From Lytechinus pictus (taxonomy: Eukaryota): DNA of 64,000 nt. Shown here one piece after another: positions 3,033 to 35,895 of the stretch (the first letter of the stretch is position 1; every line of letters starts with the position of its first letter). A model generated the notes under the pieces. That model did not search any database. It had not been told where the DNA came from and was given only the letters and a program-made list of their open reading frames with translations. The stretch lies in contig NC_087250.1 of assembly GCF_037042905.1 (NCBI RefSeq), forward strand, positions 25,670,001-25,734,000. The letters run 5' to 3'. A program made the position numbers and the translations under genes.

Positions 3033-6000
3033 TTGAAATTGAAATTGAAATTGAAAAGGTTTTATTAAATTCATTGCACTTTGCAGACAAATGGCTGAAT
3101 TGCGTACAATTTACAGGTATATATACATAGAGTATACATATTAAAAACATCAAACTTGAAATGATGAAAATATAATGTAACCTAATATATTATGTATACT
3201 AAAAGGAAAAGATGAAGTAAAAAACAAATACAAACACTGGAAGGTGGTGGTGGTGGTAGAAAGATTCTTATTGATAAACATCTTAATTCAAACAATAAAA
3301 CACTTAGTTTTAAGCAGGTAAAAACAAAAAAGAAAGACAGGAGGGTGTCTGGGGACGAGCGAGCAGTCAGGTCCAGCCAGGGATTGCCAATCACACCACA
3401 ACACCATTCAACCTGAGCAATGGAATTGGTTATTCAAATCCGTCGCTCAGCCGAACTTTGTAGGGTCAGCTTACCTGACTGGAGCTATGCATTAATAGGG
3501 CCGACAAACAATCTCTTTCAGAACAAAACACACATTCATACCACGCTCCTCATTCATCCAACAACCCAAAAGACAAACAACTGAACCCACTCACTCAGCA
3601 CCTTGCACTCATTAAGCATACGGATACAAAAAAAAAAAAAAAAAAAAATAAGTATGGGGGGGGGGTGAGTGATCGCTCGTCCCAAGAATCCGTCTTGCTC
3701 AAACCTGGAAACATTTACTTAAAATATCAAGGATCTTCCATACACATACACAAATTTTGATAAAAATTGGTGAAATTTTGGTAAAAAAGTACAAACATCG
3801 TTTCCATTTAGTTGTTACAATGCGAAATACATGGATTAAAATCATTACAAAAAACACCTGTAAACCTATTCAATTATGTTCGAGTTTAAAAAGTTATAAA
3901 AATGGTAAAATTGTAAAAAAAAAATCATCACAAGCTTTTGAGCTAATAATAATAAACAAATTGGCATCAGGCGTGATGTATTAGTATAACACAACTTGCA
4001 TAGCAGAGGTTTGTATGTATATTAACCGGATAACTGAATAACTAACTAGTCAAGATCTGAACGCCGGCAGCCGTCTTTTCGGCGGAACCCCACAGCCACC
4101 CGTCCCATACAGCGCACGCACCAAACCCGCCCAATCCTCCCACCCCTCGCTCTCTGTCACAAGAGCGAAAAATAGGAGGGCTATGCTCCCGTGAACGTAC
4201 CACATGGGACCGGTGACCGCGTGTCTCCCCATCGCCCAGCAACCAACATTCTGATCCTGACTAAGGAACAATGCAAGCTTATTTAGTAACGTTTAGTAAA
4301 TTTATAAAGTAAGGCAATGGACTGTTTAGTAAACGTTTGGTTTACAATGAAACTGACGATATTTAGGTCTTCTCATCAATGAGTAATCAACATCGTTGTT
4401 GAGAGGTAACCAATGGTTACAAAGTGGACTCTTGGCAAGGGATACAGCAAAGTTCATACACAACTGTTTTTGTCTTTCAGATAAAGATTGTAAACAACAC
4501 ACTTCTAAAACATCGGTATAATTAGTGTATTCTTCACCTAGTATTCTTGACTGAATACGTTCTAAACAGGACATTTGGTTATTTGTTAGGTTTTCGTTAA
4601 AAACTGGTACTCCAAAATCCAAAATTGGCCTAATGTAACCCTTATATACTGTTATTAAATCGCAAAGTGGTAATCGTGGTAATCTATACGTTTTGAGACA
4701 ACGAAGCATATAGAGTTTTTTTATAACTACGACGTAAAATGTCTGAAATATGACTAACCCATTTTAAGTTAGACTGAACAATTATACCTAATATTTCAGC
4801 TTTCTGCACTGTTCTCAAGCATTCATTTCCAATGAAAATACGACTTTGATCAACAACATTTTTAGAGAAAGGTATATGCATTCACTGCCATTTAGATGGA
4901 TTAAGTTTCATGTTGCTAACAGATCATTGGTGAAATTCAGATAGCGTGTTTGGTAATTTGGATGGTTGTAATTGTTTGCGCCTTCAACTAGTGTGAGTTC
5001 ATCAACATATTTAAAATATGGAACTTGAGATTTTATATATGCATCATTAATCATTATTAGAAAGAGAATAGGCCCAAGTTTTGTACCTTGATTTACACCT
5101 GCATGTGACACTGACCAATCTGAGTGTTGATATAGATTGGGATTTTTCTGCATTTTTATATAATTGGTGAAGCAATCGAACTAGGTAATGATTTGTTGAT
5201 AGCCCTTGTCGGTTTCTAAATTGGTTAACATCAATGTGTTCTGATATATTTTCTAATAACCATTTACATATGAACGACTCTGCTATTTTTGCAATTAGCT
5301 AGTCAATGATATTGGTCTTAAGTTCTGCACTGTTACTGGTAAACATTTAGGAATGGGTAAAATCTCAGAGCGTTTCCACTGACATGTTACAACAGACCGG
5401 TAAAAGGAATTGTTTAAGATGTCAGTTAGTCGTAAACATAATTCGAAGGCGAACTCACGAATGATTCTGACGGGTAGGTCATCACTAATACCAGATTTTT
5501 GTTGGTTCAAAGTTTTCAATTGTTTAAATACTTCGTAGGTTTGTACAATAGGGCAGGTTTTCTGAGATGGTAAATAAACAGGTAATTCATTTCTATTTAA
5601 ACTTTGTAGATGACTTGCCACGTTCAAGAAATGCTAAATTAATATAACTAGCAATATTTTTATGATGATTATGATCATTTGAGTCAATATTCGGAATATT
5701 AATTGGGCCATGTTTTTTTGTGAGTATTGGTTAGAATCCGAATCTGTTTGTACCATGCTGTTGGATTACTAGTTTTCAAATTTCTAATTCTGGTATTATA
5801 ATATGCAACTTTCCTTTGTCTGATTAAGCGTATCACTTTGTTTCTTAATTAACGCCACAGACTTTGGGAATTACTGAAAGCTACCTGTCTTGATGTATAA
5901 CATCTTTGACTTCCGCATTGATCCAAGGTTCATCTCTACAATGCATTCGAATCTCTTTTGTCGGAATGTGAATATCTAAGTGAGTCATCATAGTATCCAA

Positions 6001-7650
6001 TAACATTTGACATTTCAAAGATGGATCATCTTCTCTATACATTTCTTCCCAAGTAAACTTAGTTAACCAACTACCAAAAGCTTTTTTGCCACTGTCAGGA
6101 ATCGGGCGAACAATTCTTTCCTTAACTCGATTAATACGATGAGCGTTTTCTTTGGGTATCCAAAGGATACAATTATGATCACTCATGCCAATAGGGGCTA
6201 ATATTTTGGTTTCCTGGTACAATGGGTCTATAGTGGTTACAATCATATCAAGAATATTGCCCTCTCGGGTTGGTTGAGTAACAATTTGTTTAAATTTGTT
6301 ATTTTCAAGTAAGAAATCAATATCTAAATCATTGAAATCACCTATTACTAAGGTCCCAGATTCTGGGTAACGATGCAAAAGACTGTCCAGGGTGGAGAGA
6401 AGGTGGTCAACATACTGCTGCATGTTGAGGTTCCTTGGAGGGAAGTAAATCACGCAGAGTATCAGTCCGCTAATTTCCCTTGGAAGTATTTGTAGTCTCA
6501 TGCAGATCCATAAAGTTTCAACTCAGTAGGTGTAGGTACATCGATTATCCTCGCTTGAAGATGATGTTTCGCGTAGACCGCGACTCCTCCCCCTAATCGG
6601 TCTTCCCTGGGTTTTGAATATAAGCAAAACTCCGGTATTGAGAACATGTCATGGGGTTCTTCTGGACTAAACCATGTTTCCGTAATCGTTGCTCTGTCCA
6701 CCCTATATCCCTGAATGATTGTTGACAATTCGTCGATCTTATTCCTCAGTGATCTGGCGTTGAGTAGTATCGGAGGGTTGGGTCGTCGTAGCCATGGTGA
6801 CTCTGATGATGAGCAGGGTTGTCGTGTTGCATCGGTGTAATTGTAGTAAAGCATGCTGGGCGAGGTTTGCGTTGTGATGGTAAAAGGCGTGGTCGGATAA
6901 GTACAGGTATGCCTTGCCCCTGGTACGGTCTGTGACAAGATTTACGATGCTTCCTAGAACCAGCTCGTTTTCCTCGCTTGCGTAGTGGTTTTGGTGTGAT
7001 CCCGAGGTCCTTTATCACTTTCCATGTCGTTGGCGGAACAGACTTGTAGCTATTTCTTTGACGTAGGTTATATAAATCTTGAATTGAATATTTAAATAGA
7101 GAACGATTGCTGGGTTGACTGTGGTTTTGGTTTGTGGGCCCAGGATTAGGGTAGGGTGTATATCACCGCATTTGAGCAGTTCAATGTTAAATGTTGATTC
7201 ACAGTTGCTGTAGTAATGTATACTGGCACGTAAATACTTGAGATGATAAAAGTTCTTTCCTTTCTGAGAAGGAATATGAGCCTTGTAGTTTTACAATGTA
7301 ACGCTGGCTGTGCAAGTGTGATTGACTTCATGTAGCTGCTGTATTAACAGCAAGCTACTCAAGAAGAAGGCGAGTGTGAACATAATAGGTAGATTGCACC
7401 ATCAGACAAGCTATTTAGGTGGAGGAATTCCAATCAATTATTGTCTGCTTCATTACCATTTCCGAGGCTGGATGTCAAGGTTGAGTAAACAGACAAGCCT
7501 GCAATAGTCAATGTACATGATCTAATGGCTACTGTATAGAGCCAATGTAGACAGATTTACAGAATATGTGCAAAATATAAATCACATTGAAACTGGATGA
7601 AAACGTACCAAAAGTGTTCCAAAACGTCTTCAAAAGTCGCTTTGTAGTGC
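3033..7650 (-). mobile_element. Near-full-length decayed non-LTR retrotransposon (L2/CR1 group, APE + RT)
   Basis: Frameshifted minus ORFs carry RGKRAG, NARSL, ITETW, GGGVAVY, GDFND, SDHN (APE) and LRPISLTS, GVNQGTKLGPILF, KYVDE (RT). The DFSKAFD region is deleted near 5135. The 3' end has AATAAA and a (TTTCAA)n tail at 3033-3066. The 5' boundary is inferred from resumption of a host MITE near 7655. Confidence 0.9.
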
Positions 7651-8420: not shown

Positions 8421-10185
8421 CAGTAATCAAAATATACTATACACTTTTGAATTGGCTACCAAACAAAAATATGTCACTTTGGGGAAAAATACATATATAT
8501 ATATATGGAAAGCCAATAAAGTCAATTTTCAGAAGACACCAACAAGTTGGGAAACAATTCATGCCTGAGTGAGCACTACCCCCTTAAACAACGGGTATGG
8601 AAATTAGGCTGGGCATGAATTAACCTTTCAATTTATTTTAGTTTTTGAGATGCGAATCCCTTGGAATGTGCAAAGTTGAAGGTGTTGTGATAAATCAATG
8701 ATCAGGCATTATCAATTTAGGTTTTTAGAGCTAATTTCAAGAATTATTAAATTGAAATTTAATAAATGAGTGAACATGAAATACAATTATTAACTTTTCC
8801 ACGTGGATCTCAGCAATGTGTTAATGGAAGTCAGAATAGGGATGAGATAGGACTTAGATGGGGGATTTATGTTGATGAGATAAAGGTCAATAGAACACTT
8901 AACCCCCCCCCCCCCCTCTCTCTCTCTCTCCCTACGCCTTTCTCCCCTCCTGAGAGACTAGCCTTGGCTAGGGTGAGTAGGAATAAGCCTTCCAGTTGTT
9001 TTTTTTTAGAGGTGAATCCTTTGGAACTTGCAAGGATAAGGATGCTAAATTACTGATGAATTGAGATCAATTTTGATTTCTTAAGCAAATTTCAGTTACT
9101 AAATTGAAATGTAATGTATGAGTCAACAGGAATTGTAATTTCAGTATAGCATTTTTAGTTTATTATGTGGATTTTAGCAACTGTGCTTGTGAGAGTCAGA
9201 GTAATGTGATGGTACCTGCCGGATGCAAGAGGGTCAAATAGGGTAAGACTGGGTTAAAAGGGCATTCTACTTCTTTGTGTTCTCTTGCAAAATACAAATC
9301 ATGTCCTCACCCCGCCCTTCAACCTCTTTCTTTCTCCTGGATGGTATTGAAAACTTAAATGCCAAGTGACTGATGATTGATGGGTGATGGGTATTTCTTC
9401 TCCGTTGAATGATTATTGAAAACTTTACTTATTATGGTGACTTATGAAATAATTTCTTTAAAACATTGAATGTTTGATGATTTTTTTATTTAAAAAGATG
9501 AATGTTTGATTGGTCACATTGATTGACTTGATTTACTAACAAATTGCTAGTTGAATGATTGATAGGTAAAAGTTGATGACCTAATATTCAGAATTTATTA
9601 TCAAATTGACAATCTGCTAAGACTTAACACGTGCATGTAATAGCAATCAGTCTCGATCTTAACAGGGAGGGGGGGGGGGCTGTAGGAGGGAGGCTAAACA
9701 TTTCGTTGACCCTTTTCCCATCAACTCACTTCACACACTGAAGTCCTATCTTACCCCTATTCTCCTGACTCCAATGAACACACTGCTGAGATCAAAATTT
9801 TAAAATTAAAATGCTATACTAAATAATTCATGCTCACTCATGCATGGAATTTCAATTTGATAATTCATGAAATTTGCTCTAGCAATTTAAATTGATAATG
9901 AATGACTTTTAATATATCACAACATCCTCAAGTTTGGAAGATCCAAGGGACTCGCCTCTCAAAAACTGAAAGAAATCAGAAGGCTAATTCCTGCCCACCC
10001 TAATTTTCACACCCGTTGTTTAAGTGGGTAGTGCTCACTCAAGCATGAATAGTTTTCCAACTTTTTTGTGTCATCTGAAAGTTGACTGCTTTGGCTTTCC
10101 ATATATATAGATGTTTTCCCCCAAATTGATATATTTTTTGTTTGGTAGCCATTTCAAAAGGGTATAGTTTTTTTTAGACGCACTG
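8421..10185. mobile_element. Non-autonomous Tc1/mariner-type element with long TIRs (copy 1)
   Basis: The right end is ...GACGCACTG|TA and the left end is degraded. It has several hundred bp of inverted repeat and is colinear with 49063-50817. Confidence 0.8.
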
Positions 10186-11799
10186 TATAGGAGTATGTTG
10201 CTTTCACTTGTTTAAATCACATTTTGCAGTAAAGTATATCATTTACAGAAATTGCATGTTTGTGTATAGGGTGTAAATTTTGTTAAATGAATTTCGTGGA
10301 AAGTATTTTTTTTTCCTTTCTTTAACCACTATAAAATACTTTAGGGTATATTTTTACTTCCAGGCTAAAATTTATACTAGGGTGTCCGGAAAAACAAACC
10401 GATGTTACCAATATTTTGAGTGCTACACCCCCAGCCAACAATACGTATTTATGTTGAACATTCATTATCATACATACATATCAATAGGAGAATACGCAAC
10501 CATCATGATGACAACGAATACCTCAAAACAAATATACAATCCAGAGTAACCTTAGAGAGGAACAATTCTAACGATACATATTAACATATCCTTTATAAAT
10601 TGTTTGTAGTCTCACAGGTCAGTTTGTATCAATAAGACATAAGAGCATAATTGTCCTTCTAGATCGTAATAGTATTGGATAAAATGTTTTAACTAATTTC
10701 TTCCCTTTTTTTTGGGGGGGGGGGTCAAAGGAAAATAACTGTATAGGCGAGATTTTCTTAACAGGTGTTCGAAAAATACAAAAAAAGCAGTTCTGTATAT
10801 TGTCTACGAATGTAAAATGCCGTTTCAACCTTCATACATGAAATGAAAACTCATGTGGCCATCATGTTATCTTCAACGGGAAAATATATTAACTATACAC
10901 AATTCAAATATAAAATATGAAACAACTATTTTTGTTTGTCATTCTACGCTGTAGAAGTCGGGGCAATGGGCCTAGTGGACCGGAATAATAAGCACCGTCT
11001 TAAAAACTCGTTAGAACAAGCTTAAAAATCCGACCAACCGAATTTTTTCATACCCTTTCTAAACTCGCCATACTCTCCTCTTTTCGATATTCTACGCAAG
11101 AAAAGAGCGAACCTGGGGGGAGGTACGTCACTTGGACCCATAACCATCCACATGGGCCCAAGATAATTTGCTTAGTTATGTTTTTTGCGCAAGGCAAATG
11201 TACTTTACTAGTATTACTTTCATGACTCTGTGATGTCAATAGCTAATTAAGTTGATCTGAATACACAAAAACATATAATGATCACATCCGTATGTAATAA
11301 TAATAATTAAGACGATATCGTAGTGGAAATTGGATACAAAACATATTTCATAATAGTGTTGGTACATTTCAAATTATATGCAATAATTAATTAATTCCAT
11401 TTACATATCCAACTCTAATTCAGAAAATTGATTAAGTGTTTTTTTTTTTTTCAACGTGATATCAACGACAGCTTCAACTGATTATTTTCCTGCATTTATG
11501 TTACTTTAAATAATGTTCTTTATTGGTATACGTCTTTGTAATCCATGTACTTACCTGCCATCTGTTTGGAATGGAAACGGTGGACCTGGTCACTTTATCT
11601 ATATATATTATATCAGTGTCTTTGACCTTGAATAAAGTCATGATGAAACAACTGGTACTAATACCTCTTACATCAACTGAATTTTTAATGCGTATAGCAA
11701 TTGTTTCTAAAGATATTATAGACATGATATATAAATAGGGGCGATCAACCTTACTCGTCTCTTAATTTGAATGTATCCAGTAGATTTACCATTATTTAA

Positions 11800-16197: not shown

Positions 16198-18149
16198 GTA
16201 TGAAGACTGAAATCGATTTCACTTTCAGACCTTCATTTGTAGATGTTCATGGACGTTTCATTTAGTTTAGAAATAAAATAAAATGACAAAATGAATAGGA
16301 TATTTTCATCATCATGAAATATATCCCCAATTTGTACATGTTTTATGAGTCCATCTATGAATGATCGCATGGTTTACCTTACATGCATATTTACATTCAT
16401 TTGAAATTATCTTAAGATTGTTGCTAAAAGTATTATAATGGTTATGACATTATATTTGCTCCTTGCCTTGCTAAACATGTTTATTTACCATCAAAATCTT
16501 ACTGAGTATAACACGTAAATACTGGCAACGGATATCGATTCAACTAAAGTATCATTAGCCTCTTTAAAGGTGAAGTCCAGCCCAGAAAATTGTTGATTTA
16601 AATCTATAGAGAAAAATCAAACTAACATAACGCTGCAAATTCCATCGAAATCGGACGTAAAATAAGAAAGTTATGACATTTTTAAGTATCGCCCATTTTT
16701 TAACAAAACAGTTAAATGCACAACTCAGCGATATGCAAATGAGAGAGTAGATGATGTCCATCACTCACTATTTCTTTTGCTATTTATTGTTTGAATAATA
16801 CAATATTTCAATTTTTACAGATTTGACAATAGGGACCAACTTAACTGAACTATAAACTGTTGAATTAATGGTAATTTCACATGTTCAGGGAGAAATAAAA
16901 CTTTGTTGCACTTCCCAAGGAGGAGAAAATTTGAAATTTTATATGTGACTCGTCACACCGAAATGAGAGACAAGTCGGAATTTTTCAAATCCATATATTT
17001 AGTGATTATTATTCCCCGTTTCTTTACCTTTAATTTGATATATCACTCGACCCTTAAGAGTAAATATTAGTGGAGATATAAGCCTTAGAATGCAAGAAGA
17101 ATTGGGCTCTTGAAAATAAAAATCAAGAGAAAAACGCCTTCGAAGTTTGACTTCCGTTTTGACCCTGCTCCATGCAAAAATCTATTTTGCCACCGCCGAG
17201 CTAACCGAAATGCCCTAGTAACCGCTTGCCAAAAAAGGCGAAACGATTAACCAATGAAGAGGCTGCATTGAGAACAATAGTCAACTTGCAAGTCACGCGC
17301 GACTGCAAGACGAAACAACATTCTATTACGTAACATTCGTATAAGTCTTCAGAGGATAGCATTTCCCAGGTGTTAGGCAGTGAAATTCACACAATGCAAT
17401 TCAAAGCAATCAAAATTCCGCACAGGGCCAGTTCTCTATAAAAGGCCCTAACCAATGAATAGGAACCATCTTTTTCAAGTGTGACGGCAGTGACTACACA
17501 TCTTTATCTTCATGGTGAGTATTGAGGAGACATGAGCCTATGGTCTCCTTCAGCCCTGCTCTCCGTTGGGGAGCAGGCATGGAAAGCCGCCTGGAGTTGA
17601 GTAAAAGCGGCAGCTATCATGGCAGTCTGTGATATTTTTAGGCATGCGAGTCATGCTGAATTGGGCAGGAGGGCTCCTCCACCCATATTTTCGGTATGTG
17701 AGCCATACCTTTCTACATCAGGGCGCTGCCCTACACTGTTTCTTTATTAGGGCGCTGCCCTATCTTATCTACTAGAAATTCGCTGATTCAGCACACCTTC
17801 ACATCCCTATCTTATCTACTAGAAATTCGCTGATTCAGCACACCTTCACATCATTTTCAATGATTACAATAATTACTCTTGTAAACTCTTCGATTTATCG
17901 AATTAAGCCGTATGCTGATATGACATCGAACCATGTCATTTGATTTGGATTGCAAGCCTTACCCTTATTACAGCCTTATTTTGACTTCAATTCATCCGAG
18001 TAATTGCTTCCAACTTTTCTTACTTGGCATTGCCAAATTTTCTACAATACTCGCTCTAATGTATGGTTAGTATACCAACCAATAACAGCAAATGTGCTGG
18101 ACCAAGGGATTTAATTTAACCCGTGTTAAATTTGTTGTCAAGTAATTGC

Positions 18150-20200
18150 TACGCCTATATTCCAATCGGATTGTGTACAGAAGAAATACGACCCCGGAGC
18201 TCCGATAATGATGATGGTCATGGCCAACTGTGTATTGGATATACTCTTATTAGTTAATATGCTCTGAAAGTCGATTTTGTTTTCACCATCCCAAAGATGG
18301 AGAGTTTTTTACTCTATAGATGCTACCATTCCTTTGCCATAGAATGGCATGAATCTTTTGCCATATAATAATGGGTGACATTCCCGGATATATTATGAAC
18401 ATGTGTATCTATGTATAAAAATTGTTATGCCTACATTTTGAATTATCCCTCATAGGGAAACTTTTAAAAGAACCATTTCGTTAAAACATGTTTAAAAAGC
18501 ATCGATTTGGAGTACTGACATCGCTATAACATGGACTTGCGCAGGCCTCTCTTTATAACCTAGAGTACATTGTACACAAAAGGCATTTTGCACAACGCAG
18601 GAATCTTCTTCACTGCTTATAAAAACGATGATCGTTATGCTCTTGTGTTAAATTTTAAACAAGTTAAGTTGTACCAGGAGCTTCACAACAGCGATATTAT
18701 CGCTAGATATCTCACAGCTCGCGTGGATAATGCTTAGACTTCCTACTGTGCCATTTTACATTTTGGCATAACCCGATTGGTTAGTGGCCAATTCACAGTC
18801 ATTTGATATAGTTTGCTATTAATCTTGGAAAAGCCAAGTTTTGACACGAAATTCAACTATCATCAATTTGTTGCTTGTAATATTAAGCTTTACGTTCCTC
18901 AAAGGAAAAAAGCCTGATAAAAAATGCTTCATTAAAACATGTTAAATGATTATGGATCTGGAAGGAACTTCATGTTGAAATGAAAAATTCTAATTGCCAA
19001 GATGTAAATCTTGTCTGAGGTTTACCAGACAATAGATAGTACACGCAAATTTGTTCCAATGAGTAGTTCATCCGTGCAAGGCGCTTAAATGAATAGCTCA
19101 TTACTATTATTACATTAAAAGAGGTAGCTAGTATATTTTCACTAGACTTTGTAAATAGGCTACATGCCCAAGCATGAACATTCTTTTGCTGATAGACCTT
19201 CCCATTTATTCACGTTGTCCTTGACAACCTACATTGAAGATTTGTCAGACCATGGACCTATATACATGTACATGTATTCTTGTTATCTATTCATTGAACA
19301 AAGAAGAAACACAATTTAAACGATTGGATTTTCTAGCTTGACAAAGCACCTAATTATCCTTTCCAACGCAAGCCGTTGATACTAAGAGTATTCCAAATTC
19401 CCGAAGTGTACAACAAGTTGGATTAAGTAAACTTTCAACCTTTCACAAGTTTAGAATGTATGCAGACATGCATTCCGACACTTTTGGTATTTGGAAAAAC
19501 ACAGGACAGAGATCCATTGTTAGTCTAATCTGCAAAGTTGAAATTTCTTCCACCCTGTACTCATCTTGTACAAGTCTATCAACCGTGAACCATCATCCTT
19601 GTGTCATGCAAAATTTATACAATATGCTACCAAGAAGACTTAACTATATTTGAAGTAACTTTATATAATACATGGATTCTCAAGAGAACTTATTACTGAA
19701 TGTTAACAATCAGTCATCTGATATAAAAAATATTGTATAAGCCTTTATGATCCCGAGAGGATGCTGCTTTGATTTGTACATTTTGTATCGCTGAAATTGA
19801 GTTTTTTCATTACTAACTCCTCGATCACGAGGGAAATACAAAAAAAAAAAAAAAAAATTGAACTTGTGGTGATAAATGGTTTTAAAAATAAAAATGAATA
19901 ACAATAAAACTGGGATTTCTGGAAGCGAGCTCCCGAGGTCTGTTTTACAGGGGAGAGTTTAAAATACCTGACTTGGCACATCTAGGACCTAACCTGGTTG
20001 ATTCTTTTATTGTTTACATTTTATTATTCAATCAGACGACAATGTTATGTCATGTATCAAAAATTGGATATCGAAGTGTCATAATTTTGGACTCGTATCT
20101 CAAATTGATTTCTGACAATTATCAACATAAAGATTCATTACTTATTATTACTTATTATTTTGCCAGTCAACTATGCATATACTCCAACCGGATACTCCAC
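18150..20200 (+). pseudogene. Heavily decayed DIRS-like RT-RNase H-(MT) coding remnant
   Basis: Motif-like peptides occur in the expected order across stops and frameshifts: DGHGQLCIGY...F.IPKME (~18213-18302), FGV (~18506), GIFFTAYKNDD (~18600-18632; cf. GI...YLDD), MYADMHS..FG (19456; cf. TDAS..WG), SR...LGPNLVDSF (~19931-20008; cf. LSR...GP..VDLF) and NYAYTP (~20170; cf. YAFPP). Matched by eye only. Confidence 0.5.
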
Positions 20201-21979
20201 AACTTATGATTAATCTCAATCACTGCTAATATCGTTAGCATGTTAATAGGTGTCGCGATCATGTTTTGTAAGGTATCTGACCTGCCAACTACCAACATAA
20301 ATGTTTAGGAATTGATTTCTTGCACGGCACCTATGCCCTAGAACAAAATTTTTTTTAAACATGTTTGTTTTTCACAAACAAATGAATACTAATATCATTA
20401 ACTATTCAAATTGATACGTAAGTTTGATTAGAAGAATAAACTCCAATGTATCTTTGCAAGCTGTGCTGTAAACTACATCCCCGACCTCGACCACCACTAT
20501 GCTGATAATCAAGTATGATTGAATTAAGGCAATTTACTGCCTACAAATCCTTGTTGAGCTCCTTGTCTCAGTTACAGTGTTTGACAGCAATAGAACTCTT
20601 TATCAATTGTAATGATAACATTTATTAATCGAACAAAATTTGAAACATGAAATTTCATTTAATCTAAACCATGGTTATCAAGTTTATAAATCTTTCAGGA
20701 AGCTATTCTTTTCAAGTATGCTTACATCTAAATTCATTACAGCCTTTTTATGGACTTCCAATTCGGGATAATATCCTTTTACTTGGCACACCAAATTACA
20801 AGGAAGTTCGATTCAAATTCATTGTACCATTGTTGAATGTTAATCTTTTTTTGGACAATCATAAATTCTATCTTCTTATTTTGACGTCAATAATTCTGCT
20901 CTTCTCTGCTGACAGCAATTACGTCCAGCGTGCTCAAACGCTGAATGAACCATCCAAATTTCACTTTCAAAAGTTGTCATGAAAGTTATTTTGTACGATG
21001 AGAAAAGTATTTGAACATCACTACTTTGTTCCCTTCAAGTATGAATTCATTTTTGTTGATTGCTTTTTCTAAACTACTCTTCTCAGGTTAAAGGTGCACA
21101 AAGAGTACTTTCTAGTACTCACCAATTGGAACCCCCTAAAAACATCTAGTAACCTTGTCTCAGATTAAAAACTGAATTACAGTTTTTACACTTTATACCA
21201 TCTGACCATGATGCCTCAGTAATTGTACCTCGTTTCATCATTACTTAATTACCTCCTTCATCACTTAAACTTTTGATTTGATCATAGAGAAATATTTTGA
21301 CTTGATATCTGAAGCAAGATATTATTATTTTCATCCTACGATGAATCTTCCAACATTAGTTATTCTTATCTTAACGTCGATTATTATATATGGCTCTTTC
21401 AGTGAGACCATTTTCGCCTCTACTGCTGATGATAAAATGATATAAAATTATTTGAAAATATTTCACATTTATATCAATGGATTATATAGAAGTATGATGT
21501 ACTTGATTGGAGATAATTTGCAAGATGAATCGAGGAATATTTCAATGATTAATTTCCTCTGATTGTTCATTGAGATACAATTGATTAATAATTATATATA
21601 TAATCATTGGCTGATTCAGTGTTCCTTCATTACATTTTCATAATGTCAATTCATTCTGAAGTGTTATAAATCTTTCTAATTTGGCAAGTGGCAACATCGT
21701 ATGTCCATGTTGAGATAATATGATCTTTACGAGATCATTATGGGAGATAACTTTCAAATTGTTTGAAATTGACTTCTGATATGTGGCTTTGAACATGCTA
21801 TCCTCTGAAGACTTATACGAATGTTACGTAATAGAATTCGTAAATTATACAAATAGTATGAAGTATAATTAGAATTCTATTAGTAATAATGAAGTATAAG
21901 TCGAGGAGGATCCCACCCTGCATCAAAACAATTTTATTCCCTCCCGATTATACAGAAGTCAATTTTGAGATGCAGACCT

Positions 21980-22253
21980 TATTTTGTGGGAATACAGCGC
22001 CATCTATCTAGAAATAATCTATTCCGATGCACATTGTTATTATTATTTTCCCCGACTTAAGCACGAGCTGCCTTTTAGCGCTCAGTGCAATCAAGGAGTT
22101 GATCCTGTCGGGTACCCATTCACCTCAACTGGGTTGAGTGCAGCACATGGTGGGTATATTTATTGCAGAAGGAAAACACATCATACCTGGAATTCGAACC
22201 CACGTCCGTCTGATTGAAAGACGAGAGCCGTAACCACTAGACCACGGCGCCCC
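21980..22253 (-). mobile_element. tRNA-derived SINE inside the DIRS-type element
   Basis: The minus strand begins GGGGCGCCGTGGTCTAGTGG ... GGTTCGAATTCC and shares the GAGGTGAATGGGTACC core with 2045-2302. Confidence 0.8.
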
Positions 22254-24088
22254 ATTAAAACACATACAACAAATTTATACGAACCAAATGATTATTTGGT
22301 GTGTACATCTTGAAAAATTACTTAAGTGGATTGGAAAGCAATCCTGTTTTTAGTTGTTTACATACAAGATCTTTGTGTTTTGTATGACCTTAGCCGTCTT
22401 TGAAAAGATGGTTCCTATTCATTGGTTAGGGCCTTTTATAGAGAACTGGCCCTGTGCGGAATTTTGATTGCTTTGAATTGCATTGTGTGAATTTCACTGC
22501 CTAACACCTGGGAAATGCTATCCTCCTCGACTTATACTTCATTATTACTAATAGAATTCTAATTATACTTCATACTATTTGTATAATTTACGAATTATCT
22601 TCTACACATCATTGGTTAAACCGGGGTTTATAAAAATCTTCGTGAAAGAAAAAGAATGCCATGATCTCCCTTATTAATGAAATAAAAGGCGGGGATAAAA
22701 GGTTGGCCCTAAGACCAATGCTGATTCGGATCGATATCAAGCACAACCAATATTTTATTCTAATAAAGTAACAGATAAAGAATGAGAACATGCAAATGCC
22801 TTGTGCAACAAGTCTTTGTAAGATTGAATGATTAAATTTGGAGGAGAGAGAACCCCCCCCCCAAAAAAAAAAAGCCGACAAAAACATCATGATAGTAATA
22901 ACAATATTTAAAATTAAAAAAAATAAAATGAAATAAAACAAAAATCCGAGACATGACAAGACGATGTTAATTATCTAGTAAAGTATAAAATGAGTGTAAA
23001 ATGAATGTATGAATGTTCTTTTCATTACAATTTCATATGAGACAAACTGAGTTATCAAATGATTGATATACATTATGTAATTTTAGATTTATTGCGATTT
23101 TGTCTTCCTTGGTATTTATTAAACCAATGAATAAGAAAAATAGCTTTCTTCATGACAACTATCATTCTCATACTGGCAATGATCGAATTAAGCGAAGGGT
23201 GTGGTTTGTTTAAAGAAAGTTCAAGTTCCCCTGTTAGTTATCCCTCGAAAATGGGATAATTCCCCCACCCCCAACACTCACACACACAGGTCAGGCCTTG
23301 TTTACAATCTCGCCTTTGGAATCGACTTGACCCTTTTCACTGTCAATAGGCCTACACTGCGTTGCGAAGAATGAAAGGGAAAACAACGGGGATTTCTCCC
23401 CCTTCTTTCTTTTGTCGCCATAAGAAAGCGGTAGAATGAAAAGACCTTTATTGATTTTTTATTTCTTTTAAAGACATTTTACCATGTAAATGCGTATCCG
23501 CCAAGCGACGTTGCCAAGATCGATACAGAGGCGTATAATCATCATTATCATGGGTATCGTGACTGGAGACTCCAATTCTATACTCATTTCCCACGAAAAA
23601 AAAATGAACTCGTCGAATCATTTGTTTTTATATTACCAAAGGTTTTTGAAATAGATATCAATAAATGAAAGAATTGACACAATGTTTATTGTTGTCAGTT
23701 TACTTCATTTCAAGAAAGTTTCTGATAGAAATATTGATTGAAGAGCCTGTGTATGTCTATTATTATTACCAAGCTCCATGTTAAACCTTAATACTAGCCG
23801 CCATTTTAAATCGAATTGCAGGTATGATTAAAATGTTAGGCAGCCCGGTTGTGTTTAAAGTTCTCTGTTTTTTCCTTGACCGTTTTCGTAATTTTCCAAT
23901 CGAACTTTTGACTCATTCCATTCTACCGTAATTTTTCGCTGTTAATTGTTTGCTATTTTGTCATCTTTTTTGTTTATTTCCCTTTCTTACTAATCACGCT
24001 AGCATAGTATTTTTTGAATGATTTGTTCTTTCTCACATGTTCGTCTTTCCTTCCTTTCCCGCTTTGTATGTTTTTCTTACTTTTTCAT

Positions 24089-25380: not shown

Positions 25381-28371
25381 GCACAGTCGAATGGGACAAC
25401 ATGGCAATGACTTTTAGGAAATGTTAATTTCAATAGGTGTATTTTAAATGACTAATATTTTAAATCAATATCGTATGACCCGTATACCATTATCAAAAAA
25501 TTAAAAAATGCAGGCCTACTGCATGGTCCTTTCGGACCATATTTCATTGGTCAAAGTCAGGGGCGGATCCAGGATTTAAAAAAAAAGGTTTTCAACCATA
25601 AATTAAGAATATTTCGTACCCGCCAAAAAATTGACAAGCAAAAAAAAGAATAGGTCTTCAATTTCAAAAGGGAGTACATCCCGGGCTAAATCTCGGCTTC
25701 AATGGCATTTTTACATTACAAATTTTAATTTTCTTCTCAAGTGTGGGGGGACGTGCCCCCCTGGATCCGTGCCTCAGTTGTCGAAGTTAATATTCTACTG
25801 TCTCTGACTTCCTGTTATTTCTAAAAGTTATTTCTTTCTCTATCGTTCATTCAAACATGATAAACAATTGAAGGCAAAAATAATTGGAAATAATGAAGCC
25901 CACCAAGCTTTCATGATAAACTTTTTTTTCTTTTGTTAATGATACTGCAGATCAATTACCCCACATCCGCGAACATACAATACTTTTATAGATTTGAAAC
26001 CCTTTCTTTTGAAAATAAAGTTTTCTCTTCGAAACATCCCGATCACTTGCATTATCACAAAAATAACCCTTTTGAAGTTGAATCCCGTTTGTTAACTTTT
26101 GTCAAGAAGCCGCCTTTTCAATTTCAGGATACGTATTGAAAGCGATGCTTTTGATCTTTCTTTTGAAGCTCATTGAACCGATCGATCGACATGATCGAGC
26201 GAGCGGTCAGCTGTACACGAGTTTAAATGAATAGCCAATCAACAATGGCGTACGTTGCTAGGGGCGGAGCTTAGTATGAAGCGAAATTCGATCAAGTCGA
26301 GCGTGCCAAGTATCAGAAAATCTCGAACTGACCGAAAAAAACACTCGCAGAAAAACTGTTTTTTATCACTTTTCCGTCATCAAATTCACTCATTTTTTTC
26401 ACAGAGTATTTATGAAACATGGAAGAATCAGAAAATGAAAAAAAAAATCTTCAAACTTTTGACTTTTTTATTAGTTTGCCGAATTTCTAGGAATTTTGAT
26501 TTGCGACTTCTCTCTCATTTCGGTATGATCGATCACATATTACATATAATAAAATACAAAGGAAATAGTGAGTGGGTGACGTCATCAGTCTACCAATTGG
26601 CATACCGACCAGGATGTGCATCTAACTGTTTTGTGAAATTAAGCGAAATTTTAAAATGTCATAACTTTTTTTTTACATTCCGATTTTGATGAAATTGTTC
26701 AGTGTTTTACTAGTTATATTTTCTCCTTTTTTTCAAATAAACTTTTCGTTGGGGTAGACTTGTCCTTTAACGAGAGTCTCATCGATTGCAACCCTGAAAG
26801 GGAACATAGAATACTGAAAAAAATATTAATTTTTGTAGCAATTCATTTCGTTTCATTTAATTGAATTCTGCATATTTTTTATATAAAAATATTTTTAAAA
26901 AGCAATGAAAACAGTATATAATAAAAAATATTTGTGATTCAAAAGAGATAACCATGTTGTATGTATGACGTAACGATTTAACAACGTTGCATGTATTGCA
27001 ACTATTAGCTTAGCTTGACTGCCTGGCAATCCCTAACTAGAGTTACAAATCATATTCAATAATACTATCTTCATATATAAGAATGTCTGTACATGATATG
27101 GATGGGGGAGGCTAATGAGGGAGTAGCCCTCACCCAAAAAATAATAATAAATAAATAAATAAATAAATAAATCGACAGCTATTGAGATGAAAAATATTTG
27201 ATTCAGAAATCGTCATGACTGATACTTAGATTTAGCTTGTCTTCAAGTTCTTCTAGTGTATGTTTATCGAAATGTATCAATCGAATGAGTGATCTTCTTG
27301 CGCATACCTTTTCATCAATTGGACATAGAAAATTGATGCTTATAAATACTAATCAGTACATATATCACATTGTCATGCATGCAACGAACTACAAACACAT
27401 TTTGTCTGGGAGCATTCAATTCAGCCAGTTGCTTTCATCCTATAATTTTGTTTCCGATTTTGGCCGGTTTTTTTTTTGTTTTTAATACATCTTTGGCAAA
27501 ACAGCCGGTGTTCTGGAATACCTTTCTTTTACAATAATGGCGCAATTTTCGGGACTTCTGATGTAGTAGACTATAGCACGTTAAGTATTAACAAATCTTC
27601 GTAATAATTACAAACGACATTTCGACATCTTTTTCCAAAAATGTAACAGATTTACTGATATGCGCTCTGTGTGCGCCCCCATGCAGTGGCGTAAATACGG
27701 TGGGGGGGGGAACATGGGGGACACGTGCCCCCGCCCCACCCCCATCGGCTGGCAAAAAAAACGGGGAAAAGGAACGAGAAAGAGAAACGTAGTGGGAAAG
27801 AATAAATTATTGTTCATTATAATGTTACATTATAATCATGTAATGTTATATTACATTAGAAACATCTTTTTCATAACTTTATGAAACATGATTTGCTCAG
27901 GGCCTATGTGTTCATTTTACCTGGTGCTCGCATAGTCTAATTAACGAGATATATGATCCTGTTGTTCTAAATCTCCCGTTTTCAAGTCAGTATACACCAA
28001 ATATATTTCCTCGCACTTCGAGTTATTATTGTTTTATGTTATGTAGTGACATGTGCTTCTATTTCATGACTACTTAAAGCGATTGCCCAATTTTAAGGTC
28101 GTAATATAAAACATTTCATTTCTGTGCTTACGTTCGCATTAGTGGATTGGTAAGATATGTCTGCTCATTATAAATTACTAAAATCAGTTCTTAAAATGTC
28201 CCCTTTTCTGATCTGAATATCAAAAAATTTTCAGCTCGCGCTTCGCGCTCGCATCATTTGGTTAGTGATATACGTATGGTCGAGGTGTATTCCTACAAAC
28301 AAGCCTTAGAATGCCCCTCTTTAGGTCTGAATTTCCAGCATTTTCAGCTCGCGTTTCGCGCTCGCAATATT

Positions 28372-29031: not shown

Positions 29032-29062
<31 letters not shown>

Positions 29063-29070
<8 letters not shown>

Positions 29071-31706
29071 AACAGGCATCCACTCTTTAACATGACTACT
29101 GTGTCTGGTACCAAATACTTAGGCGAACAAATTACAAGACGATTTGACGTAGCTGGAAGACCATAATTTAATCGAGCTTTCGGCCTTAGGCCTTCTTCAT
29201 GGGTTCTATAAACAAAAACGAACGAAACATAATCAATAGTACAAAGGGAGGAACAGATGGACATATAATACTGATATAATAACATATGTAACATAATCAA
29301 TAGTACAGAGGGAGAAACAGATGGACATATGGACATATAATACTGATATAATAACATATGTAACAATGACGTCGTAAGTATACAATATATGCAAATACAT
29401 ACATATACAAAATACATGCACATAAACATCTACATATATACATACATACATATGTACATATACACATACATACACATATGATGTACTAACATGACGAATA
29501 TATACAAATAAATATGTATGTATCTAATGTTGGGTAATTTTACCTGGGTCGTTGGGGTCTTTCGGGCTGACTCGGAGGTGTGTACTGTCGTGCGTTCGGT
29601 TTCCGGTGTGATATAGAATTTGCGTGACTTAAGTTCATTCAATTGAAACGGTAAAGGTATAGGTCATTACACACTACATTGTTATCATGCCGGTAAATTC
29701 AAGAGGTTACATTATAAAGACTAGTTATAATTTATACAGGTAAATGACCAGATACGATTATAAAATGTAATGCATTTTGAAATATGTATGTTCACAAAAT
29801 ATATATATATGTTCATAATATATATATATATATATATGTTCACAAAAAGGAAATATATATATCGATGATAACAATCTGACAATGTCTTGTCATTATCGTA
29901 TAACAAATAGGTTTGGTGCGAATCAAAGGATAACTTAGTATCGTAAATAGTATAAGTCGTAAATTGGGAGAGGACTTCTCTATTCCTCAACATTTATGCC
30001 GTGCGGGTGAAGCGTTTTGGGTTTATGTATCCAGAATGATTCTCTATGGAGGATAGTGTTGTGTGACTCGTCGTTGATGAGTTCGATACCGGTTATCATT
30101 GCATTTTCTACTGAGTGGTTTGGGAGATTGAAGTGTGTTGTGTACGGCAATGTTTTGTGTTGTGGGGTGTGGTAGTTTCTTATTTCTGATCGAGTGTTGT
30201 TGAAGCGTGTGTATATTGTTGTTTCTGTTTTCCTACATATTATTTACCACACTGTGAACATGTGATGAGGTATATCACCCAGCGGGATTTGCAGTTTATG
30301 TTGGATCTTATGGTATATTCTTGTCCTGTGACTGTGCTCCTGAATTATTTTGTCTCTATGATATGTTTGTGGAGAACACATCTGGGCGATAGGCATTTGA
30401 AAAACCCGACAGTAGAGGTTTCATGGGCTTGTTGGGTGAGCTGGGATGGGTCTCGTGCCCGTACTAGTAAATCTTTAAGAGTGCGTCCTCGACGGAAGGA
30501 TGTTGTAGGGGGTTGAGGGAATATATCTTTCATCTTGTTTGACTGGTGTAGAATGGGAAGGTGTTTGTGTAGATTTCGGGGGATGGAGGCAGTAGGTGGG
30601 GAGTATGTAATTGGGAAGAAGATCTTGGTTGGGTCAGATGTGTTGGGGGTCTGTATTGAAGACCTGGGTTTATCAGCGGCCCGTTCAATTTGTTGTCTTA
30701 CCATGTGTTTATCATAATTCCTATCCATGAAGTGATGTTCCAGTTGTTGCATGTGGTGTTCTGTCCTTGTGTTGTCCGAGCATATTCTTCTTACGCGTAA
30801 CGCCTGGCTGTATGTGATGCATTTGAATGTGTGTTTTGGATGGCATGATGATTGGAGCAGATATGTGTGGGTGTCAGTGGGTTTTGTGAATAGTTCGGTG
30901 TGTATTTGTGCATCAGAGAGTAGTAAGGAGACGTCCAGAAAGTGTGCATTGTGGTTTGAGGATTCAAATGTGAATTTGATCGTCGGGTGGAAAGTGTTCA
31001 TTGTGGTTTGTAGTTTATTGAGAGTTCTTGGTGATCCTGACCAGAGAAAGAAAATATCATCTTTGTATCGTTTCCAGGATGTTTTAAGTGTAGTGCTGTG
31101 AGAGTTTGATGTTATTTGTTGTTCAAGTTTGCCCAAGAAGATAATGGCGTATGTAGGGGCAACAGGTGTGCCCATTGCCGTCCCTCCTATTTGAATGTAG
31201 TGTGTGTCATTGAATTTGAAATTATTAAGGGTAAGTATTAGCTCGAGCAGTCTAATGAGTTGGTTTGTTGGGGGATGTTGTTATTTCCTTTTGTCAAGGG
31301 CTTCCTTACACGCTAGTATACCTTCTTTATGTGGAATATTGGTATATAGGGATTTTACGTCTGCGATTACTAGGATCGTTCTGGGACTGATTTGGGATTC
31401 TCTGTTGATGGTAGATACGTGATTGAGGAAGTGGGTGGTATCTTTGAGGTATGATGGTAGTTGTTCTACGAAGGGTCTGAGATAAAAATCGACAAGTCTA
31501 GATATTTGTGCAGTGGGGCATGAACACCCAGATACAATAGGGCGCCCGGGATTGCCCGGTTTGTGAATTTTAGGAAGGAAATAAAGGTTGGGACATGTAG
31601 CATCCTTTGGGGTTAGGACTTTCTTTGTTTGGGTATCTGTTTCCAAGTTTTTAACTGCCCTTTTAACCTGTTCTATATGATTGGGAGTGGGGTCTTCATC
31701 AAGCCT
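29063..31706 (-). mobile_element. 5'-truncated Penelope-like element, Neptune type (RT + Cys linker + GIY-YIG), with nonsense mutations
   Basis: LDEDPT, LYFLPKIHKPGNPGRPIVS, DVKSLYTNI, MGTPVAP, RYKDDIF, FLDV, KPTD, then GIY-YIG ending at 29980. Premature TAA at 31281, 30345 and ~30242. The 3'UTR ends in (TA)n. Confidence 0.92.
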
Positions 31707-31811
31707 ATGTGATTGGGAGTGGGGTCTTCATCAGGCTTGATGAAGACCCACTCCCAATCACATAGAACAGGTTAAAAGGGCAGTTAAAAACTTCTACACC
31801 AGTCAAACAAG

Positions 31812-32366
31812 ATGAAAGATATATTCCCTCAACCCCCTACAACATCCTTCCGTCGAGGACGCACTCTTAAAGATTTACTAGTACGGGCACGAGACCCATC
31901 CCAGCTCACCCAACAAGCCCATGAAACCTATACTGTCGGGTTTTTCAAATGCCTATCGCCCAGATGTGTTCTCCACAAACATATCATAGAGACAAAACAA
32001 TTCAGGAGCACAGGCACAGGACAAGAATATACCATAAGATCCAACATAAACTGCAAATCCCGCTGGGTGATATACCTCATCACATGTTCACAGTGTGGTA
32101 AACAATATGTAGGAAAAACAGAAACAACAATATACACACGCTTCAACAACACTCGATCAGAAATAAGAAACTACCACACCCCACAACACAAAACATTGCC
32201 GTACACAACACACTTCAATCTCCCAAACCACTCAGTAGAAAATGCAATGATAACCGGTATCGAACTCATCAACAACGAGTCACACAACACTATCCTCCAT
32301 AGAGAATCATTCTGGATACATAAACTCAAAACGCTTCACCCGCACGGCATAAATGTTGAGGAATAG
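31812..32366 (+). pseudogene. Open fragment encoding the PLE Cys-rich linker and GIY-YIG endonuclease
   Basis: KCLSPRCVLHKH, CKSRWVIYLITCSQCGKQYVGKT, RFNN, RESFWIHKLKTLHPHGIN. Confidence 0.85.
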
Positions 32367-32502
32367 AGAAGTCCTCTCCCAATTTACGACTTATACTATT
32401 TACGATACTAAGTTATCCTTTGATTCGCATCGAACCTATTTGTTATACGATAATGACAAGACATTGTTATCATCGATATATACTGTATATTTCTTTTTTG
32501 TG

Positions 32503-32557
<55 letters not shown>

Positions 32558-33175
32558 TATGAACATATATATTTTTTTTTTTAACATACATATTTCAAAA
32601 TGCATTACAATTTATAATCGTATCTGGTCATTTACCTGTATAAATTATAACTAGTCTTTATAATGTAACCTCTTGAATTTACCGGCATGATAACAATGTA
32701 GTGTTTAATGACCTATACCTTTACCGTTTCAATTGAATGAACTTAAGTCACGCAAATTCTATATCACACCGGAAACCGAACGCACGACACTACACACCTC
32801 CGAGTCAGCCCGAAAGACCCCAAATACCCAGGTAAAATTACCCCACATTAGATACATACATATTTATTTGTATATATTCGTCATGTTTGTACATCATATG
32901 TGTATGTATGTGTATATGTACATATGTATGTATATATATATATATATATATGTAGATGTTTATGTGCATGTATTTTGTATATGTATGTATTTGCATATAT
33001 TGTATACGTACGACGTCATTGTTACATATGTTATTATATCAGTATTATGTGTCCATATATCCATCTGTTCCTCCCTCTGTACTATTGATTATGTTACATA
33101 TGTTATTATATCAGTATTATATGTCCATCTGTTCCTCCCTTTGTACTATTGATTATGTTTCGTTCGTTTTTGTTT

Positions 33176-33230
33176 ATAGAACCCATGAAGAAGGCCTAAG
33201 GCCGAAAGCTCGATTAAATTGTGGTCTTCC
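33176..33230 (+). ncRNA. Minimal hammerhead-ribozyme-like motif at the PLE 3' end (second copy on the minus strand at ~29155-29209)
   Basis: ATGAAGA-A-GGCC-TAA-GGCC-GAAA-GCTC gives stem II and a palindromic AGCT stem III. The core has A where C3 is canonical and stem I is weak. Confidence 0.5.
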
Positions 33231-33261
33231 AGCTACGTCAAATCGTCATGTAATTTGTTCG

Positions 33262-33337
<76 letters not shown>

Positions 33338-34327
33338 CTCTTAATGGATTCCTTAAAAATAGTCCTTAAAATGTCCATGGTTGGGGTCAATATATACAAA
33401 AAAATTTAGCTCGCGCTTCGCGCTTGCATCATTTCGTTAGTAAAATACGTATGATCTTTTCAAGTTCCTACAAACAAGCATTAAAATTGCCTTTTTCAGG
33501 TCCGAATTTCCAAAATTTTCAGCTCGCGCTTTGCGCTCGCAAGCGATTATGACTGTTGATCATGATTACAATGACTACAAATGTTTCATGTGTTAAGATG
33601 TAATTATAACAAAATGAGCAAGCGCCTGGCACTCGCATTAGATGACCATGGCGAGATATGTATACTCTGAATGGATTCCAAAAATATAGTCCTTAAAATG
33701 TCCCTGTCTGGGATCAATATGTGCAACAATTTCAGCTCGCGCTTCGCGCTCGCATTGTTTGTTTTGCGAGACAGGTACGTATCATGATTTTAAAGAATTT
33801 CTCAAAATGTCCATTTTAAGGTCTGAATTAAAAAAAATTTATCAAAGTGATACATAGCCGTTTAATGGCACTGTCCTTAAAATGTATTTATTAGGTCAGT
33901 AGGCCTATACCTGGCAACTGAGCGCGCGAAAAGCGCGCTCACTGAAGTGACACAAAATATTCGCTGGTGCCCCCCCCCAAAAAAAAAATTAAAAAATAAA
34001 AAATAAAACCGTGACCCACGTTACGCCACTGCCTCCATGTATTACACCACCCCGACATTCTGTATTATAAATGCAACAAGTCTTGATACAAACAATGCAT
34101 TCATCTAATTACTTTCCACACGGGCCAATTCATTTTTTTTTAAAGAATTTTAGCACGTTTTAATTTTGTTCAACTTGTAATATTGTTTTACTTCATGTTA
34201 AATACAACTAAAACGTCTACTTATCTTGAGTCACCAATTGTCCCCTCCCTATGTTATGTATTATGTTTCTCCATGAGTCAGATAGCAAGTGGTTGAACTA
34301 ATTTTGGCCCCTTGTTTATTATTCCAG

Positions 34328-35895
34328 ATATCTACAGTGAGAAGATTTCGCAGTCTCTGACTGTTCGAAAATGTCGCACAATCTTGGAGGACAAATATTC
34401 GAACCAGCTATGTAAAATTCAAATGAAACCTTGGGATAGAGATGATTATGCAGAGTTTGAAGATATGCACACCGTTGTTACCATGGTAAAGAAGGACGCT
34501 AATGGGAGAGATATTAAGGAAAAACAAATACTTCAAGGCTCTGTTGGGAAAATATTTTCAGCCAAAGTAAATGGAAAGTTTCCATCTCGAATCCTTATTT
34601 CGGCTCCGGCTGGACGAGGAAAGACGACAGCTGTTGCTAAGATGGCACACGACTGGGTTCACAGAGAGGAAGGGTCAGGATTAGAAGATTTGCCACTTCT
34701 GTTCGTTGTCAAGTTTCGAAACACAAGTCACAGTACATCGATTGGAGAAGCCATAATATCACAACTCCTGAGTGATGTTGACGATCTGACGCCAGAGGGG
34801 CTAGAAAGTTTCATCAGACAACATCAGGGAATGTGTCACATTGTACTAGATGGTCTTGATGAGTATGCTGGTATCTATTCCTCAAGTAATATCATGAGCA
34901 TTCTCCGCTGGGAAATGTTTCCACAATGTCGAGTTATTGTAACAACACGACCTCACCTAGAAGACATGTTCAGTCAAGGGGGTCTTCCAAGGGTATACAC
35001 GAAGATGGAGATCGAAGGATTCTCTAAGGAGAGCTCATGTGATTACATTGACAGGTTCTTTACTTCATTTCCGGACACTTTAACAGGAAATGGTCTGAAA
35101 TGTTACCTCGATGAACAACCAATTATTGAGGAACTAGTCAAAACACCACTATTTTGCCTCATGGTTTGTCACTTATGGTCTAAAGATCTACTTAGCAGTG
35201 AGACTTCAACCCAGACAGCAATACTAGACAAAGTAAACGTGTTTTTGATGCACCACGCAAATGAACGAACCGATGGGTTGTTCACGTCTGAAACCCTAGA
35301 CAAAATTATCCACAAACTGGGTAAAGTTGCCCTCACTGGTTTGCTTAATGATTCTAAGAAGCTAGTATTTACCCCTCGTGATTTTCAGAAGATTTCCTCT
35401 GCCCTTGATACGGCTTGTGAGCTAGGGATAGTATCTAAGACAACTATATCAAACGCTCGCCTTCCTCGAACTAACAAAACAAAATCTACTACTATAGAAT
35501 TTTATCACAAACTTGCCCAAGAACACGCAGCCGGAAAGTTCCTCGCTGATAAAACAAGCCATTTGCAGCTGAATTGGAAGATCTCTAAGTTAGACCGAGT
35601 GCTTCGAAAGATTGAAAGAAACATTGGTGAATATGTAAATCTTGTTCGTTTTGCTGCTGGCACAAAGAACGGCCTCTGCATTCGAATAATGGAGACGCTT
35701 CTGACAAATAAATATTTATCTGAGAGTGAGCGTTATCGTATTCTCTTAGATTGTTCGTCCGAGTCAGGGGTTAGCGATGGGAATGTGTCATCACTGGTGC
35801 GAAGGTGTGTGACGTCACAAAGTATTCTTTTGAAGTCACCAACAATCTACACTGTTGTTGGTATGCGAAATCTTCCAAGTGAACTGAAACAGAAG
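34328..35895 (+). CDS. NLR coding exon 3: NACHT NTPase with helical and winged-helix domains
   Basis: Walker A APAGRGKTT, Walker B IVLDGLDEY, sensor-1 VIVTTRP, KTPLF and WHD FYHKLAQEH. Acceptor TTCCAG| phase 1; donor AAG|GTATTC phase 0. Confidence 0.95.

Follow-up and report, generated by a model that had tools for sequence, protein, structure and literature searches.

The 64,000-nucleotide stretch of Lytechinus pictus DNA analyzed here (hereafter the window) contains, inserted in a multi-copy host repeat, a 5277-bp element that has the ends of a DIRS1-type retrotransposon and no detectable gene (Table 1). The conserved part of its left inverted terminal repeat (ITR; 17352–17474) is the reverse complement of 22403–22525 at 123 of 123 positions, and the identity stops at both edges. 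The internal complementary region (ICR; 21795–21911) is, at 117 of 117 positions, the reverse complement of 22520–22596 and 17320–17362 joined via the ATT common to the two ends. The terminal repeats are inverted and there are no long direct terminal repeats, so the split A1...B1A2B2 pattern of PAT, Ngaro, and TOC1 is absent. The identical ITR pair, the ICR that spells the joined ends, the ATT at both termini, and a short interspersed nuclear element (SINE) and a poly-A tract inside the element had all been described in an earlier annotation (the original prediction), and each of these descriptions proved accurate. The same holds for its DIRS1-type assignment: compared with the 28 annotated DIRS1-like elements in Table 3 of PMC3266345, which have a mean length of 5160, the ATT/ATT termini, the divergent (32 nt) and conserved (123 nt) ITR parts, the ICR of 43 + 77 nt, and the total length all fall within the reported ranges (compare NveDIRS6b, 30/118/49 with an ICR of 40–82, and LgDIRS2, 34/141/46 with an ICR of 46–67). 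Because the ends are those of DIRS1 elements and the coding content is not, we file the element as a non-autonomous DIRS1-type element. No second copy was found within the window, and the interior has no match elsewhere in it except through the SINE, a relative of which (75% identical) lies at 2152–2303.

Table 1. Features of the element and of the repeat that hosts it (positions in the window)
Feature	Position	Strand	Remark
Whole element, gene-less DIRS1-type retrotransposon	17320..22596	+	5277 bp
Left ATT trinucleotide	17320..17322	+	sequence
Divergent left ITR	17320..17351	+	32 nt; exact match in left ICR
Conserved left ITR	17352..17474	+	123 nt; equals right ITR
TATAAAA, candidate TATA box of a putative sense promoter	17437..17443	+	
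Interior	17475..21794	+	non-coding; 34.5% GC; without detectable gag/pol/tyrosine recombinase remnant
Perfect 47-bp tandem duplication	17758..17852	+	
A18 tract	19840..19857	+	
ICR	21795..21911	+	117 nt
Left ICR	21795..21837		43 nt
Right ICR	21835..21911		77 nt
Overlap of the two ICRs	21835..21837		AAT
C-tracts	21912..21945	+	CCCACCC (21912) and CCCTCCC (21939)
SINE with transfer RNA-derived head and (AAT)n tail	about 22032..22254	-	
Conserved right ITR	22403..22525	-	123 nt
Divergent right ITR (~32 nt) and right extension (~39 nt, 22558–22596)	22526..22596	+	exact match in right ICR; right extension matched only by the ICR
Right ATT trinucleotide	22594..22596		
Left part of host repeat, multi-copy	16941..17319	.	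12/379 different from X1 contig
Right part of host repeat	22597..22855	.	end approximate, from depth bins

The longest stop-free frame of the element has 104 codons, in agreement with the predicted ceiling of about 105 residues, and this is the level of shuffled sequence (longer in 18 of 40 shuffles). A Pfam search of the six read-through frames returned no family. As a reference, 65 metagenome loci with a DIRS-type reverse transcriptase (RT) motif were used, from which we took 29 long pol open reading frames (ORFs), 26 long third ORFs in the tyrosine recombinase (YR) position (Pfam gave no name to the three that were tested), and 20 gag-position ORFs; profiles for pol (29, 144, and 117 sequences), YR (26), and gag (20) were run with per-frame HMMER and with a frameshift-aware alignment of our own. 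With all three kinds of profile, per-frame HMMER scored the element at shuffle level, and the frameshift-aware scores of the element and the shuffle mean (25 shuffles each) were 20.3 and 19.0 for pol, 18.7 and 18.8 for YR, and 17.1 and 17.7 for gag. The 144-sequence pol profile gave 17.5, reached by 32 of 40 shuffles, and the 117-sequence profile 18.9, reached by 20 of 40; lenient penalties applied to 18401–19500 left the profile scores at shuffle level. Searching with 265 pol proteins by tblastn (E ≤ 0.05) produced four matches on the element and four on the reversed sequence, a word search with an "RT" stretch picked by eye (18564–19319) found none of 332 candidates at E ≤ 10, which is weak evidence, and tblastx between the element and the remainder of the window, where Penelope-like and LINE-like (long interspersed nuclear element-like) fragments occur, found the SINE only. 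An RT motif scan of viral contigs yielded 17 loci, none RT-like among the translations listed; Rfam gave one chance-level match and ARAGORN none. The faint RT and RNase H motifs that had been noticed by eye in the original prediction were rejected as chance, all profiles being at shuffle level, and the frameshift-aware profile and tblastn checks proposed along with them, once run, did not recover DIRS domains.

As a positive control, six held-out DIRS loci were decayed in silico (12 trials, detection being a score above 25). Detection was complete (12/12) up to 0.3 substitutions per site, fell to 8/12 for pol and 6/12 for YR at 0.4, and to 3/12 and 0/12, respectively, at 0.5. With the profiles at shuffle level, decayed ORFs and replaced DNA are indistinguishable: either the interior has decayed past ∼0.4–0.5 substitutions per site or it is unrelated to DIRS coding DNA, and the earlier claim that it consists of long-decayed DIRS ORFs is not supported. 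We give roughly even weight, for and against, to the idea that the interior was once the gag/pol/YR region of an autonomous DIRS1 element and decayed completely long ago, the element being mobilized in trans all the same, given a length like that of autonomous elements, a control in which decay beyond 0.5 substitutions per site mostly escapes detection, and a family that has been non-coding since before the two species compared below separated; the absence of signal in any profile, the equal tblastn counts on forward and reversed sequence, and a GC content close to that of the window (34.5% versus 35.2%; 48%–62% in the pol ORFs of the 29 coding DIRS loci) speak against it. The host-like composition, the poly-A and SINE inside, and the lack of a coding remnant would also be expected if template switching or recombination had brought unrelated DNA between DIRS1 ends, the ∼5.3 kb being due to chance or to a packaging constraint. 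This origin we hold to be a reasonable minority possibility, against which it counts that the donor sequence was not identified, the interior having no match in the window outside the SINE, and that sequencing depth in one run (X4, below) hints at shorter or altered derivatives, which does not favor a strict size limit.

Four of 23 sequencing runs were compared with positions 16700–23200: X1, X4, and X21 from organism A (this species) and X9 from organism B, a related species. X1 is labeled "RNA?" and X4 "?"; since their repeat profile resembles that of a DNA run, we read both as shallow DNA runs that assemble only multi-copy DNA (if they were RNA, they would instead represent a near full-length transcript), whereas X21 is RNA, of which 6% of the run was read. 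Contig pieces of X1 show 18 differences from the window in 3833 nt and those of X4 21 in 2712 nt, that is, copies 0.5%–0.8% different from the window element. In X1, the interior has a depth of 6–13 in 20 of 21 bins and 2 at the poly-A, the last flank bin being 0. In X9, the element is covered throughout (main pieces at depth 117–174, minor contigs at ∼20), and seven main pieces show 120 differences in 2134 nt (5.6%), one minor piece of depth 21 being excluded. The differences between the two organisms include indels of 1, 2, and 4 nt, so the interior evolves without frame constraint, and the family has been non-coding since before the split of organisms A and B. A contig spanning the SINE end and element-specific DNA is present at family depth (130) in X9 and also in X4, which makes the SINE a family cargo older than that split; the main contig of organism B and some X4 copies lack the 47-bp tandem duplication. 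Contig depth, which is no true copy number, and sequence identity in three runs thus suggest several near-identical copies in both organisms. In X4, the 3′ interior (19858–21690) is about tenfold shallower, with the drop near the A18 tract, so that many X4 copies are not full-length or are different there, possibly as deletion derivatives or as a subfamily whose 3′ interior is a different one. In X9, depth reaches 1147 in the outer ITR (17397) and 681 in the ICR bin (21691–21907), of which the interior explains 150–270; the excess possibly hints at other elements with the same ends, a helper among them.

The same runs bear on whether the locus could be a single, old, dead one in which gene conversion maintains the identity of the repeats, or an artefact of assembly. 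Because coverage of the interior in independent runs is almost complete, and with a 1626-nt contig running into the ICR, the repeats are not the artefact that the original prediction had named as the outcome that would overturn it. Inverted repeats can convert each other, and one insertion site is all that is seen directly; conversion, however, would not preserve an ICR match that is three-way, end-specific, and complete (117 of 117 positions), an empty form of the host repeat exists, and the interior lies above flank depth in independent runs from two species. We consider a solitary dead locus very improbable.

Further evidence comes from four ITR positions (17397, 17420, 17427, and 17434) at which the two arms of the window element agree with each other and differ from other copies, the other base being found in all of the X1 and X9 depth and in about half of that of X4. 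As both arms carry window bases that other copies lack, the arms of one copy have been homogenized, in line with the DIRS model, and the homogenized ends of the original prediction are confirmed. Homogenized ITRs together with an ICR that templates both ends correspond to rebuilding from an incomplete transcript (PMC7192593). They argue against an element that moves as DNA, without an RNA step, by means of a Crypton-like tyrosine recombinase, as does the C-tract behind the ICR, which the element shares with RT-encoding DIRS loci; that scenario would agree with the lack of an RT remnant and with RNA reads that fall short of full length, and we regard it as extremely unlikely.

The host repeat is also present without the element in X1, X4, and X9. 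In X1 and X4, the empty joint connects 17319 to 22593 by way of 14 other letters. At the insertion site, the empty host shows an ATT and no target-site duplication, and its left flank is separated from the ATT by 15 nt that are missing at the window locus. The two junctions (17319/17320 and 22593–22597) have the ATT plus one neighboring right base in common (AATT). The empty allele that had been predicted is therefore not confirmed in its exact form, the empty host repeat having 15 nt more to the left of the ATT than foreseen. Since the empty forms probably represent paralogous copies of the host repeat (12 of 379 positions different), the 15-nt loss may pre-date, accompany, or follow the insertion; as it abuts the element exactly, a link to the insertion is favored. 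Directly to the left of the host repeat lies a very high-copy repeat (16560–16916), with relatives at 26538–26774, 62104–62334, and 62803–63069.

Together, these data lead us to conclude, with considerable confidence, that the window holds a gene-less element with full DIRS1-type ends that is present at full length in two related species and is likely copied in trans by an autonomous DIRS1 element, the probable trans-acting factors being the helper's Gag, RT/RNase H, and tyrosine recombinase. The young, trans-mobilized family of the original prediction finds support in near-identical copies with a common SINE, in homogenized ITRs, and in an empty host site, from which we infer the trans step itself. 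In Dictyostelium, the ICR of DIRS-1 is essential and its RT acts in trans (PMC7192593). In the DIRS-1 model, an incomplete sense transcript is copied into complementary DNA (cDNA), the right ITR serves to restore the left one, the ICR serves to restore the outer ends, and a circle junction is formed and inserted by the recombinase at a trinucleotide (PMC7192593, PMC5633606); even with active DIRS-1, PCR across the junction was unsuccessful (PMC7192593). Applied to the present element, sense RNA would start close to where the left ITR meets the interior, downstream of the TATAAAA, and helper RT would make the cDNA, rebuilding the left ITR from the right one and the outer ends from the ICR. Each round would thereby re-homogenize ITRs and ICR, and identical arms unlike those of other copies are what is observed. 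The ends would then join at ATT into the junction spelled by the ICR, and the recombinase would insert this at a genomic ATT; here, the target is an ATT in another repeat, and 15 host bases are lost at the left junction. The interior, SINE included, would travel as passive cargo, and the C-tract beside the ICR would be a likely cis-signal of the cDNA step.

Sense transcription is weakly seen in X21, where depth is at most 8 just inside the left ITR, almost all of it in the 5′ 2 kb, and first mates are almost all on the minus strand, as for sense RNA under the usual stranded protocol. The alleles carried by this RNA (17350–17700) are common to organism B (X9) and to an X4 minority, hinting that a second subfamily is the transcribed one. 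A TATA box was found at the left end of none of seven coding DIRS loci, several of them truncated, so it is not a family trait, and the RNA fold of 17470–17760 is unremarkable (z = −1.34; 18 of 200 shuffles as good).

It should be noted that several observations weigh against copying in trans of a multi-copy family as outlined above. No second insertion site with other flanks was seen directly in the runs, and the copy number rests on contig depth, which in X4 is 22–48 in the 5′ half and 0.2–7 over 19955–21690. A 26-nt ITR pattern had no match in metagenome contigs, and a helper was not found in this way. The X21 reads have few starts, six of them look like one duplicated fragment, none lies over the ICR, and they carry alleles of a copy other than that in the window. 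The 15-nt loss departs from the clean crossover of the DIRS model. Finally, the core common to ITRs and ICRs is 11 nt long in three of the repeats and 6 nt in the right ICR, compared with at least 10 nt in the elements described in PMC3266345.

The window element has only two CCCNCCC motifs, CCCACCC at offset 0 from the ICR and CCCTCCC 27 nt later. Among 11 coding loci whose right ICR was self-detected, nine have a CCCNCCC that starts at most 8 nt from the ICR end (six of eight independent groups; 0.12 expected for all 12 sequences, the motif having been chosen after the data were seen), and in the five further coding loci whose right ITR could be located, the motif is found 27–48 nt upstream of that ITR in every case (0.2 expected; the tail matches were known before the position test). 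The usual full form is CCCNCCC..CC..CCCC, also written CCC[A/G/T]CCC..CC..CCCC, and is G-rich on the cDNA strand; G4Hunter scores are 1.0–2.1 in the nine coding loci and 0.84 in the window element. The conserved tract between ICR and right ITR was noted in the 3′ tails of the coding DIRS1 loci L019, L020, L022, L026, L032, L039, L043, L046, L050, L053, L054, L058, L062, L066, L068, L070, L073, and L082. In the window element, there is no CCCNCCC near the right ITR, which is 491 nt away from the ICR. Because the tract adjoins the ICR and is absent near the distant right ITR, it goes with the ICR and not with an ITR promoter. A competing interpretation is a transcription-factor site, since the C-tract also reads as a GC/CACCC box. 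We propose, tentatively and as the less probable case, that CCC[A/G/T]CCC..CC..CCCC could be an undescribed conserved cis-signal of DIRS1 replication that primes or stops cDNA synthesis at the ICR, acting on the cDNA strand as a G-rich sequence that is either quadruplex-prone or a purine tract. According to PMC7192593, what primes DIRS reverse transcription is unknown; the parts of PMC3266345 covered do not describe the C-tract, and a literature search for a DIRS polypurine tract, G-quadruplex, or ICR motif, outside of which the older Goodwin and Poulter papers fall, found no paper on it. If the proposal is right, the gene-less family would be a natural minimal-substrate map for the priming and finishing of DIRS reverse transcription, in which ends, ICR, and tract were kept while the SINE displaced the right ITR to a distance of 491 nt, and the post-ICR C-tract would be one concrete candidate cis-sequence for a Dictyostelium-type assay.

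Elsewhere in the window, a 1.5-kb inverted pair (93% alike; 29040–33336) surrounds Penelope-like fragments (RT, 30345–31280, minus strand; GIY-YIG, 31788–32366) and a palindrome (31645–31793). A 535-codon frame on the plus strand (34297–35904) encodes a NACHT domain (E = 8e-16) and is probably an exon of an NLR-type gene. Endonuclease fragments of a LINE-like element lie at 5881–6941 (minus strand), and a 1.75-kb element that carries long terminal inverted repeats is present twice (8429–10188 and 49057–50823), the two copies being 71% alike. The DIRS-type pol proteins P0001 and P0082 are labeled bacterial by their source (a Sedimenticola sp. metagenome-assembled genome) and likely stem from eukaryotic DNA binned into bacterial genomes.

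Among known systems, the element is closest in layout to the DIRS1-like elements of PMC3266345, with which it has in common the ATT ends, the divergent and conserved ITR parts, the right extension, the two ICRs with a 3-bp overlap, the lack of a target duplication, and a length of ∼5 kb. It differs from them in having no gag, pol, or YR, in the short four-way core of the right ICR, in the loss of 15 host bases, and in a gap between right ICR and right ITR (491 nt, or 268 nt without the SINE) that exceeds any in Additional File 3 of that paper (maximum ∼370 nt). Coding DIRS loci have the post-ICR C-tract and the same end layout, most completely in L070. The literature covered, including the available parts of PMC8498967, PMC9210276, and PMC3783388, with Repbase and most subscription papers outside its scope, describes no non-autonomous DIRS family of the ITR/ICR type, and PMC3266345 leaves relics and degenerate elements out of consideration. 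Since coding-domain searches miss gene-less elements, DIRS1 families of this kind may go uncounted in animal genomes, and a passenger that has lasted in two species shows which cis-sequences suffice. TOC1 of Chlamydomonas reinhardtii is likewise a non-autonomous DIRS-order element with copy-number variation (PMC9940879), but TOC elements are of the PAT type with split direct repeats (PMC3266345), whereas the present element has the ITR/ICR structure of DIRS1. SIRE of Trypanosoma cruzi is, similarly, a non-coding derivative of a tyrosine-recombinase retroelement, VIPER, but is only ∼0.4 kb long, is of the split-repeat type, and is debated as to its mobility in trans (PMC6681497), whereas the window element is full-sized. 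Non-autonomous members of the DIRS order are thus already known for the split-repeat types. Large retrotransposon derivatives (LARDs) among the long terminal repeat (LTR) retrotransposons resemble the window element in being large, non-coding, cis-complete, and moved in trans, and differ from it in their direct LTRs and in the target duplications made by their integrase.

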